Assembly: GCA_041577335.1 (NCBI GenBank)
Contig: JBFGJH010000034.1
Coordinates: 1 to 35,151 of the forward strand
Reading direction: 5' to 3'
DNA length: 35,151 nt
Source: Acidimicrobiia bacterium
GTDB taxonomy: Bacteria; Actinomycetota; Acidimicrobiia; Spongiisociales; JAENVV01
Of the stretch, positions 2,620-34,424 are shown piece by piece. The notes beneath the pieces are model-generated. The model had not been told where the DNA came from, did not search any database, and was given only the letters and a program-made list of their open reading frames with translations. A program made the position numbers and the translations under genes. Each line of letters opens with the position of its first letter. Within the stretch, counting starts at the first letter, position 1.

Positions 2620-3582
2620 TCACCCGAGCGTCTCGAGCGGCACGACCCCCGTAGGGTCGATGGCGATCGTCGTGGCTTCACCGACCGGCGGAAGTGCCCC
2701 GCGCACATGGGCCTCGAGCGCCACGCCGGAATCGAGACGAACGGTGACAGCCACGGTCGAGCCGTGGAATCTTTGCCCGATTATCACGGCGGGCAGCGTG
2801 CCGTCCCCGATGCTGATTGCATCTGCATGGATGACGACCGGCCCATCGGCCACGCCGGCGAGGCCATCGAGAACATTCTCGAATCCCAAGAAATCGGCCA
2901 CCCAGCGGTCGGCCGGTCGACGCCATACGGCGGCAGGAGTACCGGCCTGGGCAATCACCCCGTCCCTCATGACGACCAGCTGGTCGGCAAGGGCCAGCGC
3001 CTCGTCCTGGTCGTGGGTCACGTAGAGGGCGGTGATGTGCCGTTCTCGAAGGATCGTGCGCAGTTCGTCGATGAGACGGGTGCGGAGCTGGCGATCGAGG
3101 CTGCCGACTGGCTCGTCGAGCATGAGGAATCGCGGCGCGGGTGCCAGCGCTCTCGCCAAAGCGACACGCTGCTGCTCTCCACCTGAGAGCGTTGCAATGC
3201 TTCGGTTCTGATACCCGCCGAGACCAACCCAGCTGAGGACCTCAGTGACCCGTGCCGAGAGATCTCCCCCCGAGTCCCCTCGCATTCGCAGGCCGAAGCC
3301 GACATTGCCGGCGACGGTCCGGTGTGGGAAGAGTGCGTAGTCCTGGAACATGAGCCCGAAGTTGCGAAGGTGCGCCGGGACGCCGTCGAGGTCGGCTCCG
3401 TCCCATGCGATCGTTCCTTCCGTGATGGGTTGCAGGCCCGCGATCGCGCGAAGCAGGGTGGTCTTGCCTGATCCGGAAGGGCCCAACACTGCCGTCACCG
3501 ACGCGGGATCGAGTGACAAACTCACGTTGTCGAGGGCGAGGGTCCCGGGGAATCGCACACTGACGGAATCGACCGTGAGCAT
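2620..3582 (-). CDS. thiQ: ABC transporter ATP-binding subunit (thiamine transport, ThiQ-like)
   Basis: Walker A GPSGSGKT, signature LSGGEQQRVALARAL, Walker B LMLDEP, H-loop VTHD; third gene of the TPP-riboswitch operon. Confidence 0.85.
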   Translation of the reverse strand: MLTVDSVSVRFPGTLALDNVSLSLDPASVTAVLGPSGSGKTTLLRAIAGLQPITEGTIAWDGADLDGVPAHLRNFGLMFQDYALFPHRTVAGNVGFGLRMRGDSGGDLSARVTEVLSWVGLGGYQNRSIATLSGGEQQRVALARALAPAPRFLMLDEPVGSLDRQLRTRLIDELRTILRERHITALYVTHDQDEALALADQLVVMRDGVIAQAGTPAAVWRRPADRWVADFLGFENVLDGLAGVADGPVVIHADAISIGDGTLPAVIIGQRFHGSTVAVTVRLDSGVALEAHVRGALPPVGEATTIAIDPTGVVPLETLG

Positions 3583-5201
3583 CAGAATCCTCCCCGCCCG
3601 CGCCGGTGGTCGATGAGGCCAATCGAAACCGCGGTCACCACCATGAGGATCGAAGCCATGGCCATCGCCTGGCCAAAGCTGGCCTCGCCGGGACGGCCGA
3701 GAAAGCGTTCGATGGCGATCGGCAGAGTTGGATTGTCGGGACGCACGATGAACGCCGTCGCTCCGAACTCACCCAGCGAGATGGCAAACGCGAAGGCCGC
3801 TCCGACCAGCAGTGCACGGCTCACCAGGGGAAGGTCGATCTCGCGGAAGGCTCGCAAGGGTGATGCTCCCAGCATGATCGCCGCTTCGCGCAGGCGGTCT
3901 TGAACGGCGGCCATGACGGGTACCGCCGACCTCACGACGAAAGGCACTGCCACGAGTGCATGTGCAATCGGAATGATCCATATCGATGCACGCAGGTCGA
4001 TGGGGCGATCGAGAGCCACCAGGAATCCGAATCCAACCGTCACGGCTGACGTTCCCAGCGGGAGCATCAGCACTGCGTCGAACCACCTACTCGATGATCC
4101 GGTGCCGTACGCAACGACTGCCGCAGCCAGACCCCCGACGATCACGGCAATCGTGGCGGCCGCAAGGGCGAACGCAATCGAGTTCCCGATGGCCTCCGCA
4201 GGGGGAACCGCAAACGCTCGGTCTCGCTCGGCGAGCTGGCGGAAGAACGTGAAGGAGTAGGCGCCGCCGGCACGGAGAGACCGGTTGATGAGTACAACCA
4301 GTGGTGTCATCGTGAAGGCCAGCACCCCGCCGAGCGTGAGGCGCACCCACCAGCGCTGACGTCTGGTCACCGGCCTGCGCGCCGATTGAACCGGAGCGGA
4401 CAGGGAGCGCTGCAGAGCGTGGGATCGCTGGTAGTGGGCGTACCAACCGAGTGTGAGTCCTACCCCCAGCAGCTGAACGATCGACAGCAGGGCCGCGCCG
4501 CGCAGGTCGAACGCTTGCAGCGCTCGGTTGTAGATCGACACCTCGAGTGTCTCGAAAGCCAGGCCGCCCAAAATCAACACGACCCCGAACGACGTGAAGG
4601 TGAAGAGGAACACCAGTGACGAGGCTGCCATGAGACCCGGTCGGAGGAGTGGAAGCGTAACGGCTCGAAAGACACTGAACCGGGTGGCGCCGAGCATGGT
4701 GGCGGCCTCTTCCAATCGGGGGTCGATCGTTTCCCAAAGAGCTCCCACCACTCTGACGACGACGGCCACGTTGTAGAAGACGTGGGCGATGAGAATCAAA
4801 ACCAACGTGCCCTCCAGATTGATCCCGAGGATTCCGCGCGGTCCCACCAGCGCCAGGAACGCTGATGCGACCACGACCGTGGGCAGAACGAAGGGAATCG
4901 TGATGAGGGCCTTGATGGTGCGCTTGAACCGGAATTCGTATCTTGCGAACACGCCGGCGACCGGCAGACCGATCAGCAGCGTCAGCACGGTCGAGGCCAC
5001 CGCCTGGCCAACCGTGAAGGTCACGACGTCCCACAGCCCCACGTTCGTCAGCGCGTTTGCCAACCCGTCGTCGCCGGAGCTGACCCCGATCCACAGAATG
5101 CGGCCGACCGGATAGAGAAAGAACCAGCCAAGGAAGGCTGCCGGAACCACGGCCGCCCAGCGGAGCGAGCGGGCGCTCAGCGCAGTACTACTGCGGTCCA
5201 T
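3582..5201 (-). CDS. thiP: ABC transporter permease (thiamine transport, ThiP-like)
   Basis: Two EAA loops (EEAATMLGA, REAAIMLGA) and about 12 TM segments; lies between the binding protein and the ATPase. Start may be 5201 or 5213. Confidence 0.88.
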   Translation of the reverse strand: MDRSSTALSARSLRWAAVVPAAFLGWFFLYPVGRILWIGVSSGDDGLANALTNVGLWDVVTFTVGQAVASTVLTLLIGLPVAGVFARYEFRFKRTIKALITIPFVLPTVVVASAFLALVGPRGILGINLEGTLVLILIAHVFYNVAVVVRVVGALWETIDPRLEEAATMLGATRFSVFRAVTLPLLRPGLMAASSLVFLFTFTSFGVVLILGGLAFETLEVSIYNRALQAFDLRGAALLSIVQLLGVGLTLGWYAHYQRSHALQRSLSAPVQSARRPVTRRQRWWVRLTLGGVLAFTMTPLVVLINRSLRAGGAYSFTFFRQLAERDRAFAVPPAEAIGNSIAFALAAATIAVIVGGLAAAVVAYGTGSSSRWFDAVLMLPLGTSAVTVGFGFLVALDRPIDLRASIWIIPIAHALVAVPFVVRSAVPVMAAVQDRLREAAIMLGASPLRAFREIDLPLVSRALLVGAAFAFAISLGEFGATAFIVRPDNPTLPIAIERFLGRPGEASFGQAMAMASILMVVTAVSIGLIDHRRGRGGF

Positions 5202-27283: not shown

Positions 27284-27562
27284 TTACTGGTCGAGATAGC
27301 GGTTGCGGAATTCGCCTGCCGACATCGTCCCGAGGTCGGCCTTCATGTCCTCGATCATGCCCGTCAAGGCCGCAACGGTTCCTTTGACGACCTTCCCAGT
27401 CGCCTTCTCGACGACCACCGGATGGGTGCCGGCGGGGATCAACTGGCCGCTGAACGGGGCCATGAATTTGTGAAGGATCGTCCGGATCGGTCCCATCTGA
27501 GCCGTCGGCTCCTCGATGATTGCGAACACCTCGGCTGCGGGAAGTTCATCGTGGCTCGACAT
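27284..27562 (-). CDS. Hypothetical protein (92 aa)
   Basis: AGGAGG RBS before ATG; plausible GC3-rich codon usage; no family recognised. Confidence 0.7.
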   Translation of the reverse strand: MSSHDELPAAEVFAIIEEPTAQMGPIRTILHKFMAPFSGQLIPAGTHPVVVEKATGKVVKGTVAALTGMIEDMKADLGTMSAGEFRNRYLDQ

Positions 27563-27686
27563 TTGAGGTCCTCCTGAGCTCACAATCCTAGAGGTTCGAA
27601 TCCGGCCTGGAACGCGCTGCGCCGTCTCCAACATGCGTCGGCGGGCGGTGACGCTGCGGATCCGCCGGAGGCGCAAAGGACAGCGG

Positions 27687-27946
27687 TCAATCCCTGGATG
27701 GACCGGAAAGGCCGGTGTGATCTCCGACGATGTCGCTCACGGTGACCGGTGCACGACCGAACGCGTCCGTCGAAGGCGGCCGGCCCTCATCGTTGAGGAT
27801 GACCTCCAGCATCTCGTCGGCGGAGAGATCAAGTTCGCCGTGCTTCACCATCGGCTCGGCCAAGAGCACGTCATCGGATGCCGGATCGGCAAGTCAGGTT
27901 CTCTCCGGGCCGCAACTTCAATGAGTATGATCTTCAGAACCGTCAT
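27687..27946 (-). pseudogene. Possible frameshifted gene remnant
   Basis: Coding-like segment LADPASDDVLLAEPMVKHGELDLSADEMLEVILNDEGRP... is bounded upstream by an in-frame TGA, while another frame upstream reads MTVLKIILIEVAARRE. Confidence 0.25.
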
Positions 27947-28102
27947 CAGCGCCGGCTGCGCCGCCGGGCAGGTCGAGGTTGACCGCGACTCTGCAAGCCG
28001 AGTACGAGGGTGCGAAATCGACCTACCAGCGCCGGGGGCGGTCGATACGTTGCGCAGTTACTGTCACGTTTCGTAGATCATCTCACCCGAGGAGCCGGCC
28101 AT

Positions 28103-28459
28103 ATGAGCAGCAGCATTCGAGTCAACGCGGTCCATTCGATCCTGGAAGGACACGTAGACGAAGTCAAGAAGATGAGCGTTGCGTTCGTAGACAAGGTCCA
28201 GGCAGGTGAACCCGGGTATCTGAGCTACGAGTGGTTTCTGAGCGATGACGAGAGCAAGTTGTACATCGTTGGACTTCTCGAAGACTCGGCGGCGGTGATG
28301 CACCATCTCACCAGCATGGGCGACATGATCGGTCCCTTCTCGGAGATCGCGCCCACATCCAGGCTCGAGATCTACGGTGATGTGTCGCATGAATTGAGGG
28401 AATTCGTCGCGCCATTCGGCCCCGAGATCGCCGGGCACTTGAACGGTTTCACCCGCTGA
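28103..28459 (+). CDS. Antibiotic biosynthesis monooxygenase (ABM)-like dimeric alpha/beta barrel protein
   Basis: GAGGAG RBS; EPGYLSYEWF, DSAAVMHHL, RLEIYGDVS, HLNGFTR. Confidence 0.85.
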   Translation: MSSSIRVNAVHSILEGHVDEVKKMSVAFVDKVQAGEPGYLSYEWFLSDDESKLYIVGLLEDSAAVMHHLTSMGDMIGPFSEIAPTSRLEIYGDVSHELREFVAPFGPEIAGHLNGFTR

Positions 28460-28631
28460 AGCGTCGTCGAATGATTCCGGCCGATGCAGGTATCACACCT
28501 CGTCGCTGATCTCGACTACTGCGCAAGTCGACTCCGTGCTGTTGTCATAGTGACAACGCAGTGGGCCCAACTGGACAGTTCCTGAACCGCAATTCGGTCT
28601 GGTTCGAGAGTTTGCGGAGCGAACTCCGTTA

Positions 28632-28649
28632 GGTCGCCAGCGGCGACCG
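28632..28649 (-). terminator. Hairpin just downstream of the tRNA 3' end
   Basis: ggtcgcc-agc-ggcgacc. Confidence 0.5.
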
Positions 28650-28652
28650 GCG

Positions 28653-28725
28653 TGGGCCCCGTGGGACTCGAACCCACAACCAACGGGTTAAAAGCCCGGT
28701 GCTCTGCCAATTGAGCTAGGGGCCC
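28653..28725 (-). tRNA. tRNA-Lys (anticodon UUU), CCA not encoded
   Basis: GGGCCCC acceptor stem, D arm GCTC-AATTGGCA-GAGC, anticodon loop CTTTTAA, T arm GTGGG-TTCGAGT-CCCAC, discriminator A; TACCGT -10 box 6 nt upstream. Confidence 0.97.
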
Positions 28726-28783
28726 GCCGAAACGGTAGCAGCGGGCGGCCTTGGCAAGATCTCCGGTTTTCAACCCTGAGTGC

Positions 28784-29170
28784 CTAGACGAACTCGACTG
28801 CTGCAGTGGCGTCGTTGATGACGAAGACCCGGTCGTTGTTGCTGGTCGGGTCGGCAGGGAAGACGAAGAAGGCTGGTCGATCGGCTGAGTAGCCCGACGT
28901 ATAGCCGTGCAGCGTCTCACCGTCTTTGAATGTCACCTGGACTTTCCGTCCTAGACCGTGGCGCTCGGCATCGTCGCGCCCGCGATTCTCGGCGTCCCCG
29001 TCGTAGCTGTGGACAAAGAACAGCGCCTTGAGGTCGGCAACGGCCACCGCGGCAATACCTCCTTGGTCGGTGCGCTGGATGTGGAACATCTCTCTCTGTG
29101 GCGCGAAATCGTTGCTCACACCCTTGGCTACCGAACTGTCCTTGAAATGCGCGACGACCATCTGGCCCAT
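28784..29170 (-). CDS. Conserved hypothetical protein with duplicated small beta domain (DUF6982-like, from recall)
   Basis: GGGAGG RBS; internal repeat VVAHFKD..VAKG / VQVTFKDGETLHG; LKALFFV; FFVFPADPTSNNDRVFV. Confidence 0.85.
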   Translation of the reverse strand: MGQMVVAHFKDSSVAKGVSNDFAPQREMFHIQRTDQGGIAAVAVADLKALFFVHSYDGDAENRGRDDAERHGLGRKVQVTFKDGETLHGYTSGYSADRPAFFVFPADPTSNNDRVFVINDATAAVEFV

Positions 29171-29294
29171 GGAACCTCCCTTTTCCGCAGACAAAGCATA
29201 CCGTGGCGGATCGACCACGCAAAGTGGTATTTCGTAAACGGTGGTACGTGCCGCGAAGGCAAATCTGTTGATGTCACCGCCTAACCTCCCTCGC

Positions 29295-31112
29295 ATGATT
29301 CGGTTTGGAATCTCCGGCCTGCCCAGCGATACCGATGACGATGGCGCCTGGCTCGACAGGGTTATCGAGCAGGGCTACCGGGCAGTCGAGCTGAGCTTCA
29401 CGAAGGGTTTCCCCTGGAAAGAGCGGCGCTGTGCTGCATTTGGGAAATCAGCTGCCGAGCGTGATATCGCAGTGTCGGTGCATGCCCCGTTTTTCGCGGT
29501 GCTCACGGTGCAGGACGAGGACAACGCCAAGAAGTGTCGGGCAGCGCTCGAGCACACCATGAAGCTCGGCAAAGAGCTGGGAGCGCGAGTGGTCGTTGCC
29601 CATCTGGGAAGTACGCACGACGAGCCCCCCGAAGACCTCCTGGCCCGGATCCGCAGCCATCTCGACTGGATGGAGCCCAAAGTTCGCCATCTCGGTGTGG
29701 CGCTGGGCCTCGAAACGGGTGGGAAGACGAGCCAGTTTGGCAGCCTCGGTGATATCGCCCTTCTGGCCGGCGAGTATTCGTTCGTGCGGCCGGTCATCGA
29801 CTGGGCGCATGTGCATGCGATGTCGGGAGGCGCCCTCACCACCAAGGAGTCGTTCGTAGCGGTGATCGAGTTTCTGCGAGCTCAATTCCCAGGCTGGATG
29901 ATCGACCCACTCCACTGCCAGTTCACTGACAACGTGTTCGGGCCGGCGGGAGAGATCAAACACGTGCCATACGGCGAAGGATCGTTGCGGATCGGGCCCC
30001 TGGTCGAGGCAGCAAGAGAGCTCGGCTTGCGGATGAACATGATCTCCGAGGCCAGGGAGCCGGCCAGCCACCGGGCGATGCTCGAGGAAATCAACGCCAC
30101 CCTCGCCGCAGGCGAACGACCGGACCGCCCGGGAAGGGAAGTCTCGTCTGGGGCTATCCCCTTTCCGGATCCCGTCTCGGTGATCACTGAAGGCAATCAT
30201 GCGACCCCGATCGGTCTCGATCGGCCGCTGCGCCTCTCGAACATCGACAAGCCCTTCTTCCCGGAGGGGTATACCAAAGGCGACCTCATTCAGTACTACG
30301 CCTCCATAGCTCCAATCCTCGTGCCCCACTTGCAGGATCGTGCCATCGTGATGGCACGATTTCCCGACGGAGCCGACGGGGAGAGCTTCTACGAGAAGCA
30401 AGCGCCGGGTCACCAGCCGGAGTGGATGCCGTTGGCGCCGATTCACTCGTCGGTGCGAGGAGAGGCCATCGAGTTCGTCACTGCCTCGGATCGCGAGTCG
30501 CTGATGTGGTTGGCCAACATGGGTTGTATCGAAATCCACCCGTGGCTCTCCAAGGTTCAGGACGTCGTCCACCCCAGTTACGCCATTTTCGACCTCGACC
30601 CTGCCGAGGGAGCCGTATGGCGGCAGGTAGTTGATGCTGCCCGACTGGTGAAGACGTTGCTCGATGGTCTTGGCTTAGAGGGTTATCCCAAGACCACCGG
30701 GTCCAAGGGCATCCACATCTACGTGCCGCTCGAACCCGTCTACACCTACGAACGAACTCGCCGTTGGGTTTCGACCGTGGGGCACCTTCTCTCCAAAGCC
30801 AATCCCGAAGACATCACCATGGAGCCAAACATCCCCCGGCGCGTTGGGAAGGTGTTCGTTGATGCGAACCAGAACGTGGGCGGCAAGACCATTGCCTCGG
30901 TGTACTCCGTTCGCCCGTTCGCGGGCGCTCCGGTCTCGGCGCCCGTGCTCTGGGACGAGCTCGATGACGTCGAAGCTCGTTCGTTCACCATTGCCAACAT
31001 CTGGGAACGCTTGCAACGGTACGGCGACCTGTTCACGCCGGTTCTCGAAGGTGGGCAGCGCCTAGAGAAGGCTGAAGCGGCGGTGGGCATGGCGGCGGAG
31101 GACCCGCAATAG
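29295..31112 (+). CDS. Fusion: endonuclease IV-like (AP endonuclease 2) TIM barrel + LigD-type primase-polymerase (PolDom)
   Basis: N-half: IRFG, SVHAP, VAHLG, LETGGKTSQFGSL, IDWAHVHA, GEIKH, ISE. C-half: LSNIDK, TKGDLIQYY, RFPDG, FYEKQAP, EIHPW, FDLDP, KTTGSKGIHIY, VFVDANQN, KTIASVYSVR, PVSAPVLWDEL. Confidence 0.92.
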   Translation: MIRFGISGLPSDTDDDGAWLDRVIEQGYRAVELSFTKGFPWKERRCAAFGKSAAERDIAVSVHAPFFAVLTVQDEDNAKKCRAALEHTMKLGKELGARVVVAHLGSTHDEPPEDLLARIRSHLDWMEPKVRHLGVALGLETGGKTSQFGSLGDIALLAGEYSFVRPVIDWAHVHAMSGGALTTKESFVAVIEFLRAQFPGWMIDPLHCQFTDNVFGPAGEIKHVPYGEGSLRIGPLVEAARELGLRMNMISEAREPASHRAMLEEINATLAAGERPDRPGREVSSGAIPFPDPVSVITEGNHATPIGLDRPLRLSNIDKPFFPEGYTKGDLIQYYASIAPILVPHLQDRAIVMARFPDGADGESFYEKQAPGHQPEWMPLAPIHSSVRGEAIEFVTASDRESLMWLANMGCIEIHPWLSKVQDVVHPSYAIFDLDPAEGAVWRQVVDAARLVKTLLDGLGLEGYPKTTGSKGIHIYVPLEPVYTYERTRRWVSTVGHLLSKANPEDITMEPNIPRRVGKVFVDANQNVGGKTIASVYSVRPFAGAPVSAPVLWDELDDVEARSFTIANIWERLQRYGDLFTPVLEGGQRLEKAEAAVGMAAEDPQ

Positions 31113-31266
31113 TCCCCCCGTTCACGGGGGGAAAGTACCGCCGCCCGACAGGGCGGGGGTAGGGGGGCGGCCCTGCCCGATAGGGCAGGGGCACTGAATG
31201 AGCAGGGTCACCCCTCCACTCCGTTCCGTGACCGGTACCTTCCCCCAGCCAGGCTGGGCGGACCAT
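31112..31266. repeat. Inverted pair of REP-like palindromes (REPIN-like), likely also a terminator between convergent genes
   Basis: gtccccccgttcacggggggaaagtaccgccgccc (31112-31146), internal hairpins, and cggtaccttcccccagccaggctgggcggaccat (31233-31266) in the opposite orientation. Confidence 0.7.
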
Positions 31267-31324
31267 CGCGTGTGCGTAGGCGAGGCGCAGCTCGCCCGTT
31301 TCAGGATCCGGGCGACTACTTCCG

Positions 31325-32302
31325 CTACTTGGCGTCGGCGGCGTTGAGGACCCATGCGTAGTTGGCCTCGGGGTCTTCGATGGCGAGGCGGCATGCCCAG
31401 CCGGTGGCCGGATAAAGATCGGACCACCAGAACCATCGAAGCTCGGCGATCGCCTCGCCCAGCATTGCCGAGTCCACTGGCCACTCGTCTGCCAAGTCGG
31501 TGACGGTGGCAGCGGTCCACCACGCGGCAAGACGGCCGTTGGCCGCGCCGCTTCGTTGGCCGAACGCCCCGCCGTCTGCCGCAGTCCACGCCATGATCGC
31601 CATGGCTTGTGATGGGTCGAGGGCAGCCACCCGGGCCTCACGTAGCCCAAGCGAGCCGATCGCATGGAGAGCAGTGCCCTCCACGACCTTCGCCTCGCCC
31701 GTTCCATTCGACGAATCGGTCCAGGTTGACACCAGGCCCAGGAGAGCATCGATTGAGGCCCGGTCGTTGACAGGCTCTGCCGACTCGAGTTCGACCCGTT
31801 CGAGTCTTTCCGGGTGTGGCGGGTGCGACTCCAATCGATCCGCCTTGTACTCGGGTACTGAGTATTGGGGCTCCCAATCGGCCAAAGTGAGGGGCACCTC
31901 GATCAAGGCCGAATCGAGTTCGGCGACGTTCCGGAGGTCCTCGCCACGAACCACCCGTTCTTGGGCAACCACGGAACGGCTCGGCCCGGTAGGCAGGTGC
32001 GGAGCCAGCTCGGCCCAGGTATGGGTGGACGCAGCAACCTCGGTAAGTGGTCCCAGCGTGAACCGACTCGCAGGGGAATCCACGACAGGTCCAGCAAATG
32101 CGGGTGGGCCCTCCAATGCCAACCGGTAGTCGATGTGGTGGGCGATCGCCCAGAGCTGTTTGCCTCGTTCGACAGCCTCTCGACACAGTTCCTTCATGTC
32201 GATCAAGGCGTCCCATTGGCGGTCGTCGCACAGGGCGTCGACTCGCTGCAGCAGCTCGTCATGCTTGGCACGCTCGACCAGCTCGGCAATGGTGAGGCTC
32301 AT
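31325..32302 (-). CDS. Conserved hypothetical protein (resembles an Acidimicrobiia-associated family, possibly DUF6183)
   Basis: 325 aa with good codon usage; translationally coupled to the sulfurtransferase gene. Family assignment is from recall only. Confidence 0.8.
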   Translation of the reverse strand: MSLTIAELVERAKHDELLQRVDALCDDRQWDALIDMKELCREAVERGKQLWAIAHHIDYRLALEGPPAFAGPVVDSPASRFTLGPLTEVAASTHTWAELAPHLPTGPSRSVVAQERVVRGEDLRNVAELDSALIEVPLTLADWEPQYSVPEYKADRLESHPPHPERLERVELESAEPVNDRASIDALLGLVSTWTDSSNGTGEAKVVEGTALHAIGSLGLREARVAALDPSQAMAIMAWTAADGGAFGQRSGAANGRLAAWWTAATVTDLADEWPVDSAMLGEAIAELRWFWWSDLYPATGWACRLAIEDPEANYAWVLNAADAK

Positions 32303-33557: not shown

Positions 33558-34424
33558 ATGCTCCTTCACCTGGTCGATGGTACCTATGAGTTGTTCCGGG
33601 CGTATTTCGGTCGGCCGCCGCGATCCAACCCGCACGGCCATCCCGTTGGTGCGGTGCATGGGCTCTTGGACTCGATGATCTCATTGTTGCGCGAATCGGG
33701 AGTTACACACGTGGCTGTGGCGTTCGACACGGTCATCGAGTCGTTCCGCAACGAGCTGTTCGACGGATACAAGACCGGGGAGGGCATCGAACCCGACTTG
33801 TGGGCTCAGTTTCCCATCGCCGAAGAGGGCCTCCGGGCCCTCGGTCTGACGGTGTGGAGCATGGTTGATTTCGAAGCCGACGACGCCATGGCCACCGCCG
33901 CGCTGCGCTGGGTCGACGACGTTGACCAGATCATGATTTGTTCGCCCGACAAGGACATGACTCAGGCCGTCATCGCCGACCGGGTCGTGACGTACGACCG
34001 TATGCGTCAGGTGCTTCTCGATGAAGACGGCGTTCGTGGGAAATTCGGGGTGGCTCCGGATTCGATTCCCGATTATCTCGCTCTCGTCGGCGACACGGCG
34101 GACGGCGTGCCGGGCGTGCCGTCGTGGGGGGCGAAATCTGCGTCGGCCGTGCTGGCCGAATACCACCGGCTCGACCGTATCCCTCTCGATGAAAACGAGT
34201 GGACAATCAAGGTTCGGGGAGCCGGCCGCCTCGCCGAAAACCTTCGGACTCACCTCGCCGACGCCAAGCTCTATCGAACCCTGACGACACTCCGGAGAGA
34301 CGTGCCAATCGAGGAATCCCTGGAAGACTTGGAGTGGCAGGGCGTCCCGCGGACGACCTTTGAGGCGTTCTGCGAAAAGCACGGCTTCGACACGATTCGG
34401 GACCGAGTTCCCCGCTGGGCCTGA
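33558..34424 (+). CDS. Stand-alone 5'-3' exonuclease / flap endonuclease (Pol I N-terminal domain family)
   Basis: LHLVDGTYELFRAY, VAFD, FRNELFDGYK, FEADD, SPDKDM, H3TH motif DYLALVGDTADGVPGVPSWGAKSA. Confidence 0.95.
   Translation: MLLHLVDGTYELFRAYFGRPPRSNPHGHPVGAVHGLLDSMISLLRESGVTHVAVAFDTVIESFRNELFDGYKTGEGIEPDLWAQFPIAEEGLRALGLTVWSMVDFEADDAMATAALRWVDDVDQIMICSPDKDMTQAVIADRVVTYDRMRQVLLDEDGVRGKFGVAPDSIPDYLALVGDTADGVPGVPSWGAKSASAVLAEYHRLDRIPLDENEWTIKVRGAGRLAENLRTHLADAKLYRTLTTLRRDVPIEESLEDLEWQGVPRTTFEAFCEKHGFDTIRDRVPRWA

Follow-up and report, generated by a model that had tools for sequence, protein, structure and literature searches.

A barrel-polymerase fusion gene in the window

The DNA analysed here, called the window throughout, is the whole stretch of 35,151 nucleotides of contig JBFGJH010000034.1 (assembly GCA_041577335.1) from an Acidimicrobiia bacterium, and our subject is a gene on its forward strand that joins an endonuclease IV (Endo IV)-like TIM barrel to a LigD-type polymerase domain (PolDom) of the archaeo-eukaryotic primase-polymerase (AEP) family (Table 1). 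An earlier reading made from the letters alone (the sequence-only reading) had described positions 29295-31112 as one uninterrupted open reading frame (ORF) of 605 residues, and translation of the window indeed revealed no internal stop. The longest ORF in this frame opens with a GTG at 29241, 18 codons upstream of the ATG at 29295; the ATG is the likely start, because the consensus of 99 homologues begins there with MIRFG. Pfam scans returned an AP_endonuc_2 match at residues 21-257 (E 8.6e-25, 88.3 bits, cut-off 31.1) and a LigD_Prim-Pol (PF21686) match at residues 327-580 (E 2.7e-86, 289.7 bits, cut-off 27.4), and the fused protein scored 237.7 on the NCBIfam model ligD_pol (TIGR02778), above its cut-off of 214.7. 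Scans with PF01068, PF04679 and PF13298 gave no match in the fused protein, which thus has neither a ligase nor a phosphoesterase (PE) domain.

The two domains are separated by a linker in which the confidence of the AlphaFold2 model (predicted local distance difference test, pLDDT) drops to 64 and 50 past residue 270. Column entropy in an alignment of 99 fused proteins peaks over residues 261-310, and mean identity to the window protein is 0.65 and 0.68 in the two domains and 0.37 in the linker. The alignment supports the view that both domains are under purifying selection, and their similar conservation along with the variable linker would fit two active modules on a flexible tether. Beyond the polymerase, V583, L584, G586, G587, Q588, A593, E594 and G598 of the C-terminal tail are each conserved in at least 90% of the proteins.

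Table 1. Coordinates of the fusion gene, its parts and the nearby features discussed in the text (window positions).
Feature	Position	Strand	Description
Whole CDS	29295..31112	+	605 aa and TAG stop; Endo IV-like barrel, linker, LigD-type polymerase
Endo IV-like TIM barrel	29295..30107	+	N-terminal, residues 1-271
Variable linker	30108..30224	+	residues 272-310
LigD-type archaeo-eukaryotic primase-polymerase domain	30225..31034	+	residues 311-580
Short conserved C-terminal tail	31035..31109	+	residues 581-605, consensus PVLxGGQxLxxAExALG
Three G+C-rich hairpins	31113..31200	.	possible terminator region, read directly from the sequence
tRNA-Lys (UUU)	28652..28725	-	about 570 bp upstream of the fusion; ARAGORN, Rfam 71.5 bits
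Longest divergent DUF6982 ORF	28784..29296	-
FEN-type 5'-3' exonuclease gene	about 33564..34424	+	5_3_exonuc_N and 5_3_exonuc; 2.4 kb downstream of the fusion

The fusion is not unique to this assembly, a possibility that the sequence-only reading had raised. Searching 5.8 billion protein clusters gave at least 120 representatives, about 600 aa long and 60-94% identical, all with both Pfam domains and drawn from several sources and many contigs. Those that are named come from Acidimicrobiia or Actinomycetota metagenome-assembled genomes (MAGs) and are called 'non-homologous end-joining DNA ligase' or 'bifunctional ... LigD', which are misnomers because the proteins have no ligase domain. A full-length fusion (query residues 1 or 2 to about 600; the exception, G279, matched over 1-552) was present in 55 of 301 genomes sampled from the class, all 55 from the window's order, where they make up 55 of the 77 sampled genomes (54 of 76 without G254, which is flagged unpublished) and fall in all eight sampled families (f1, 6/7 plus the window's own genome; f2, 32/35; f3, 4/9; f4, 3/16; f5, 3/3; f6, 3/3; f7, 2/2; f8, 1/1). 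Other orders of the class gave polymerase-only matches.

Sequencing reads led to the same result. Five DNA runs, drawn from two studies, contain the gene's 31-mers at a share of at least 0.83; a contig of run X1 crosses 29000-31360 with 4 differences and no gaps, and one contig of run X2, from another study, crosses 29000-30500 (barrel, linker and polymerase start) with 0 differences. No indel inside the ORF was reported in the four runs compared over 29000-31400, one of which may be the source of the assembly, and none of the 22 sequencing runs returned for the 31-mers is an RNA run. Larger architectures were not seen: the N-domain had no match at or below E 1e-10 among proteins of 1060-3025 aa, and the longest among the best 150 N-domain representatives has at most 607 aa. 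The fusion is a real, conserved gene and not an assembly artefact.

The question of the architecture's taxonomic range, also put by the sequence-only reading, was pursued beyond the class, and the barrel was found in 19 of 401 sampled genomes of the phylum. Family f102 (4 genomes, one unpublished) has the fusion in the same N-to-C order as the window (L014, L018), whereas in family f88 (3 small genomes of 1.4-1.5 Mb and 45% G+C) the order is reversed, with the polymerase first and the barrel last in a protein of 600 aa (P0132; L015, 6193-7995, minus strand). As the f88 order is opposite, the two domains have been joined either way round. One further family has a stand-alone barrel (L016, 270 aa) at a locus with no AEP, Ku or ligase gene, and of the three remaining matches in the phylum, two are weak and one is in an unpublished genome. 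The reversed form shares its 90%-identity cluster with members of 345 and 255 aa on one contig, possibly a split gene or a frameshift, and P0126 looks frameshifted past the barrel.

Relatives of the barrel and of the polymerase

A HMMER search of 1.84 billion representatives with the N-domain yielded 689 relatives. Besides fused proteins and fragments, they include many proteins that stand alone, with about 260-290 aa and 23-37% identity, those with a name being called 'TIM barrel protein' (DPANN-type archaeal MAGs) or 'deoxyribonuclease-4'. When 18 relatives were scanned against NCBIfam, the best match was the deoxyribonuclease IV (nfo-type) model in 17, all below its cut-off; P0170 matched only a CbiR phosphodiesterase model, likewise below cut-off, weaker CbiR matches recurred among the 18, and some had UvdE/UvsE matches. 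A profile made from an alignment of the barrel with 67 stand-alone relatives, run against solved structures, retrieved 15 Endo IV sequences (E 3.5e-18 to 4.7e-9) and MJ1311 (8.1e-18), with UV-damage endonucleases next (about 6e-7), so that 15 of the 16 best sequence matches are Endo IV. The AlphaFold2 model of residues 1-290 (mean pLDDT 94.3) had the Endo IV structures of T. maritima and E. coli as top Foldseek matches (template-modelling score, TM, 0.77-0.80), and sugar epimerases followed at TM 0.58-0.71. Profile and modelled fold together place the predicted barrel on the nuclease branch of the superfamily.

The Nfo-type motifs that had been recognized in the N-half are all present (HAP with H63, AHLG with H103, LET with E140, IDWAH with D169 and H172, GEIKH with E220 and H223, ISE with E252). 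Together with H207, these residues fill all nine Nfo metal-ligand positions in the window protein; as the equivalences rest on aligning it with chains of Endo IV, M. tuberculosis End among them, we treat them as candidate ligands. In E. coli Nfo we take the ligands to be H69, H109, E145, D179, H182, H216, D229, H231 and E261. The acidic ligand before the last His (E220) is shifted one position earlier, giving E-x-x-H in place of the D-x-H of Nfo. Eight of the positions (H63, H103, E140, D169, H172, E220, H223 and E252) are invariant in the 99 fused proteins, and these same eight and G149 are invariant in comparison with 67 stand-alone relatives, in which the positions of H207 and H209 are also nearly invariant (consensus LHxHF). 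Within the fused family, the 207/209 pair is HxH in 13 proteins, HxQ, the state of the window protein, in 57, and QxQ in 29; a His at 218 occurs in 10 of the 29 QxQ proteins versus 0 of the other 70. The sequence-only reading had suspected a changed Zn ligand in LHCQF as against the usual LHIHF. The departure from the stand-alone LHxHF is real and the site is relaxed, since residue 207 is Gln in 29 of the 99, but the ligand His itself, H207, is kept in the window protein, and the Nfo counterpart of Q209 is an Asn without a ligand role. Where Nfo has its Tyr/Leu DNA wedge, the window protein has F66/F67 (motif HAPY/F); the aromatic residue (93 of the 99 proteins have Y, 6 have F) presumably corresponds to the wedge Tyr, and the solved Endo IV entries listed include a Y72A mutant.

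The C-half was likewise correctly taken for a complete PolDom: it passes the ligD_pol cut-off and contains FDLDP (D433, D435), KTTGSKGIH (K466 to H474, the nucleotide site) and VDANQN (D523, N527). The catalytic Asp triad D433, D435 and D523 is invariant in the 99 fused proteins, as are K466, N527, K319 and K328, and N316 is kept in 98 of them. The best solved matches are the Methanocella non-homologous end joining (NHEJ) polymerase (5dmu, 184 bits), M. smegmatis Prim-PolC (6sa0/5op0, 167) and the M. tuberculosis PolDom (2iru, 154). Mapping via the 6sa0 alignment predicts a 5'-phosphate pocket of N316, K319 and K328, the counterpart of N20, K23 and K35 of Prim-PolC in the portion of Plocinski et al. 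(PMC5663958) at hand.

That Prim-PolC has, in the same portion of the paper, a C-terminal extension that is strictly conserved and made of helix 8 and Loop 3 (aa 294-336 in M. smegmatis; PMC5663958). In the fusion, the part alignable to 6sa0 reaches no further than chain residue 282, and the 25 residues beyond the core are too few for such an extension. Conversely, a PolDom on another contig of the own genome (C16) scored 290.9 bits against 6sa0 over chain residues 7-337 and is a true Prim-PolC (L007, 1318-3141, minus strand; no adjoining ligase within the 3.7 kb read). Its ORF of 607 aa is probably over-extended at the 5' end, because the match covers only 279-600 and an ORF on the opposite strand overlaps the rest. 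Because the Loop 3 extension is absent and the genome has a separate true Prim-PolC, we rejected the identification of the fused polymerase as Prim-PolC, and the analogy to Prim-PolC in base excision repair (BER) on which the sequence-only reading leaned is weaker than it had stated. The genome has a third PolDom, a stand-alone one, on contig C35.

A maximum-likelihood tree of 26 PolDoms, picked from loci already fetched, groups the same-order fused polymerases in a supported clade (96/99). An unfused polymerase from genome G086 nests inside this clade beside a fused one (100/93), and therefore its barrel has seemingly been lost secondarily; this orthologue (contig C32, L042, about 3269-4126, minus strand, in a 336-aa frame) has 50-53% identity, and a barrel was not found in the 8 kb read at that locus. 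The deep forks, on which the question of a single or several origins of the three fused lineages depends, are unsupported, and the long C16 and C35 branches are placed with little certainty.

Ku, ligases and the genes around the fusion

The window's own genome (3.38 Mb in 128 contigs, 90.75% complete) has one Ku match, on C7, and three ATP-dependent ligase matches, on C7, C11 and C28. None lies on the window's contig and no Ku or ligase turned up among the 18 ORFs scanned between 21 and 35 kb, in agreement with the sequence-only reading, which had seen no ligase domain and no adjacent Ku. PE (PF13298) was not found in this genome, which also encodes an Nfo-like protein (123.4 bits) and two ExoIII-family proteins. 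Over 121 genomes of the order, two of them unpublished, Ku was tallied in 95, PE (PF13298) in 24 and an ATP-dependent ligase in 113.

Co-occurrence with Ku, a check that the sequence-only reading had proposed, was scored in the 54 genomes for which fusion and Ku status are both known (three of the Ku-negatives were identified via the PE and ligase tallies). Ku was found in 32 of 35 genomes with the fusion (not found in 3), versus 7 of 19 without it (not found in 12), and PE turned up in 6 of these 35 fusion genomes versus 5 of the 7 genomes with Ku but without the fusion. In the own genome a ligase-only gene is found at most about 2.5 kb from Ku, as is an orthologue of it in 14 of 20 other fusion genomes; in one of the 6 fusion genomes without a ligase at the side of Ku, the Ku contig is only 3.9 kb long. 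None of the 21 Ku loci of fusion genomes contains a PolDom, PE or barrel, and all three fusion-less genomes examined (two genera of f4) have PE, ligase and polymerase in a row beside Ku. The other two fusion lineages, f102 and f88, have Ku in 5 of 5 genomes, each with a ligase-only gene 0.6-1.8 kb away; the fusion is the only PolDom in 2 of 2 genomes of the reversed-order lineage, and at least two of three f102 genomes have a second PolDom beside another ligase, a LigC/Prim-PolC-like pair.

One genus differs. In all three of its genomes (95, 99 and 100% complete) an intact 601-aa fusion is the only PolDom match, and Ku and PF01068 ligases were not found in any of the three, which stands against a strictly Ku-dependent role of the fusion. 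Closer to the window, the fusion of a sister genome in the genus of the window's own genome (G028, 98% complete) is 82% identical; that genome yielded no Ku and a single ATP-ligase match, versus Ku and three ligase matches in the own genome, a difference due to either recent loss or an assembly gap.

In the window, the fusion is flanked by a divergent DUF6982 gene and a convergent DUF6183 gene, with a rhodanese gene and others nearby. We considered and rejected a conserved repair operon around the fusion, as the flanking genes scanned in the window and in 17 related loci include no ligase. In the window and in 6 of 14 same-order loci, the strand of the fusion also carries a FEN-type exonuclease gene at a distance of 2-4 kb, and the block fusion/DUF6183/rhodanese/small ORF/exonuclease is whole or partial in 6 of the 14 (f1, f3, f4 and f5). 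This could reflect gene order that was simply inherited, or else a loosely assembled repair neighbourhood. Upstream, the tRNA-Lys was the only Rfam match within 27500-31500. A conserved tblastn match of 25-55 codons to the tRNA-Lys stretch lies near the fusion start in 5 related loci and elsewhere in 5 more, and in L028 a phage-type integrase gene occupies the corresponding position; a tRNA-Lys/integrase spot may account for the variable upstream neighbours.

At the 5' end of the gene, a CATG at 29294-29297 is shared by the starts of the fusion and of the longest DUF6982 ORF, whose true start is probably further in because its Pfam match begins only at residue 46. No Shine-Dalgarno-like sequence precedes the fusion start, the mRNA may be leaderless, and a promoter scan returned 0 sigma-70-like sites. 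At the 3' end, the hairpins directly after the stop (for example CCCCCC-GTTCAC-GGGGGG) separate the convergent ends of the fusion and DUF6183 genes. They are absent from the list of the consensus terminator scan because they have no T tail; that scan gave 3 terminator-like sites, all on the minus strand and no more than in shuffles. The depth of metagenome contigs leaps to 224 and 101 at the hairpins versus about 5, with many loose ends; G/C-run elements of a similar kind are therefore present in many further contigs of those samples.

Proposed role, rival readings and significance

Bacterial end joining and LigC-type excision each depend on a nuclease to generate a clean 3'-OH, on an AEP polymerase and on a ligase, and to our knowledge the nuclease joined to the polymerase has so far always been the LigD phosphoesterase. 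We propose, with a probability of about one half, that the fusion is a two-step 'clean and fill' repair enzyme, usually the nuclease and polymerase half of a split LigD and also usable without Ku, with activities, substrates and partners that we infer. The barrel, as a metal-dependent phosphodiesterase, would make or restore a 3'-OH, stripping 3' blocks (3'-phosphate, 3'-phosphoglycolate or 3'-unsaturated aldehyde) and/or incising 5' of abasic (AP) sites; the tethered polymerase would dock on the 5'-phosphate that borders the same break or gap, adding the few nucleotides that are missing, and a separate ligase would seal the nick. In most hosts, where Ku lies beside a ligase-only gene, the fusion, encoded elsewhere, would replace the PE and POL domains of a classical LigD. 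This split-LigD setting is the best supported because the pattern of Ku with a ligase-only gene occurs in three lineages, PE is scarce and the polymerase is Prim-PolD-like. Since the fusion persists in one genus with neither Ku nor any ATP-dependent ligase, the enzyme can do without Ku, and therefore it probably also serves single-strand-break or base-excision gaps sealed by LigA. A coupled mechanism in which incision or cleaning precedes filling is plausible.

A narrower version of this proposal is tentative: the barrel would be a third, unrelated class of 3'-end-healing nuclease in NHEJ that replaces the LigD phosphoesterase in a LigD split over two loci, and the drift to HxQ and QxQ, along with His218, would mark a remodelled metal site. 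Such a site could have a new end specificity, for example resecting 3'-ribonucleotides laid down by its own polymerase.

Several observations weigh against the clean-and-fill, split-LigD proposal. First, the N-domain scored only 32.6 bits (E 4.9e-8) on the nfo model (TIGR00587), short of the cut-off of 129.65, the closest stand-alone relatives scoring likewise at 21-81 bits. Second, the margin of the fold over sugar epimerases is only about 3 Z units, and being so modest it means that fold alone would not decide. Third, residue 207, a candidate ligand, is His in 70 and Gln in 29 of the 99 fused proteins. Fourth, the Ku-adjacent LigD polymerases group with the C35 type (86/90), apart from the fused clade, and the stand-alone C35 PolDom could be the real NHEJ polymerase of the window's genome. 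Fifth, Ku, ligase and glycosylase genes were found at none of the 56 flanking positions of 14 same-order orthologous loci (two per side), nor among the flanking genes scanned in the window, L014, L015 and L018. Lastly, PE is present in six fusion genomes, the fusion-less genomes with PE come from 2 genera only, and as the genomes are related, the Ku and PE counts reflect few independent events and carry no statistics.

The fusion could instead be a dedicated single-chain enzyme of base-excision or single-strand-break repair, its barrel incising abasic sites or cleaning the 3' ends that glycosylase-lyases leave, its polymerase filling the short gap as Prim-PolC does and LigA or a LigC-type ligase sealing, with no part for Ku. 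We regard this reading as somewhat improbable, and yet it stays a serious rival. The genus without Ku and ATP-dependent ligases keeps an intact fusion in 3 of 3 genomes, the gene never adjoins Ku or a ligase (0 of 56 flanking genes), the fold and ligands are Endo IV-like, the fused PolDoms form a clade apart from those of Ku-adjacent LigD, and mycobacterial EndoIV, Prim-PolC and LigC set a precedent in the available part of PMC5663958. The same-strand FEN-type exonuclease, shared by the window and 6 of the 14 loci of the order, is weak evidence, because the intervening genes are conserved too and the arrangement is maybe inherited gene order. Against it, the polymerase lacks the Loop 3 extension of Prim-PolC, the genome already has a true Prim-PolC, an Nfo-like gene and two ExoIII-family genes, the fusion co-occurs strongly with Ku (32/35 versus 7/19) and with Ku loci of the ligase-only type, and it is the sole PolDom in a Ku-bearing lineage. 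The proposal of the sequence-only reading, AP incision and gap filling for BER by one polypeptide, accordingly survives in part: the fusion is genuine and coupled cleaning and filling is plausible, but its distribution points at least as much to Ku-linked end joining.

It is unlikely that the barrel is no DNA nuclease at all, being degenerate or structural, or acting on another substrate (a sugar or sugar phosphate in the manner of MJ1311 or the epimerases, or other nucleic-acid ends), which would leave a polymerase with an accessory domain. The nfo score far below cut-off and the drift from HxH (13 HxH, 57 HxQ and 29 QxQ of 99) speak for it; against it, eight other ligand positions are invariant over the 99 proteins, an aromatic residue is kept at the Nfo DNA-wedge position (Y 93, F 6), Endo IV accounts for 15 of the 16 best solved-structure matches with UV-damage endonucleases following, and the barrel is as conserved as the polymerase and is fused in both orders to a DNA repair polymerase. 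Finally, an artefact (two neighbouring genes merged through loss of a stop codon, through a frameshift or through misassembly), for which the few split or truncated forms (the 345- and 255-aa members of the reversed-order cluster and P0126) might speak, is ruled out by the at least 120 two-domain representatives, the full-length matches in 55 of 77 same-order genomes, the four runs without ORF indels and the independent contigs, one spanning the whole gene and one from another study spanning barrel, linker and polymerase start.

The nearest known system is bacterial LigD (POL-PE-LIG, as in M. tuberculosis Rv0938 and P. aeruginosa LigD) and its split form in Methanocella paludicola (Ku, Lig, Pol and PE), whose polymerases are of the same family. 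Like LigD, the fusion keeps the catalytic triad and the 5'-phosphate pocket and joins a (here predicted) 3'-end-processing nuclease to the polymerase, and its hosts mostly have Ku with a ligase beside it. Unlike LigD, it has no ligase or PE domain, its nuclease is an unrelated Endo IV-like TIM barrel, its gene is never beside Ku (21 of 21 Ku loci are without it) and its polymerases form a clade of their own, apart from the Ku-adjacent LigD polymerases. With Endo IV (Nfo/End/APN1), its mostly archaeal stand-alone relatives and MJ1311 (PDB 3wqo), the fusion shares the TIM-barrel fold, the H/E/D ligand positions, the HAPY/F wedge motif and the ETxG...G loop. It differs in falling below the nfo cut-off, in having E-x-x-H and not D-x-H and in being fused to a polymerase, and the HxH of the stand-alone relatives is HxQ in the window protein and QxQ in 29 of 99 fused proteins.

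The mycobacterial LigC set offers the same proposed succession, Endo IV-type 3' processing followed by AEP filling of a 5'-phosphorylated gap, which the fusion would hold in one polypeptide. As described in the part of PMC5663958 available, mycobacterial EndoIV, Prim-PolC and LigC1 reconstitute excision repair, EndoIV is the best 3'-processing nuclease and its contacts in the LigC complex are with LigC. By contrast, the fused polymerase is not Prim-PolC and has no LigC operon, and the barrel is a divergent relative of Nfo/End and no orthologue.

Full-text literature searches found no paper describing an EndoIV-like-polymerase fusion and no assayed member of the fused subfamily. The accessible text of Kazlauskas 2018 (PMC5862659) and that of Williamson and Leiros 2020 (PMC7470946) mention no TIM barrel, xylose, AP endonuclease or Nfo. 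Sharda 2020 (PMC7719229), in the excerpt at hand, lists 20 extra domains in Ku and LigD proteins, and a term search of its whole supplementary file returned no PF01261, AP_endonuc, xylose isomerase or endonuclease entry.

Our verdict is that the fusion is real and common, and that it represents a mis-annotated, so far uncharacterised variant within the LigD/AEP repair toolkit. The widespread database name 'NHEJ DNA ligase' is corrected for these proteins, which have no ligase domain. The occurrence of the fusion in both orders is strong comparative evidence for a coupling of Endo IV-type cleaning to AEP fill-in, for which the mycobacterial LigC complex, as far as the available part of PMC5663958 goes, is the only experimental evidence found, and the fusion offers a compact, testable enzyme for this clean-fill coupling. 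It may also explain how dirty ends are processed in many Actinomycetota that pair Ku with a ligase-only gene.

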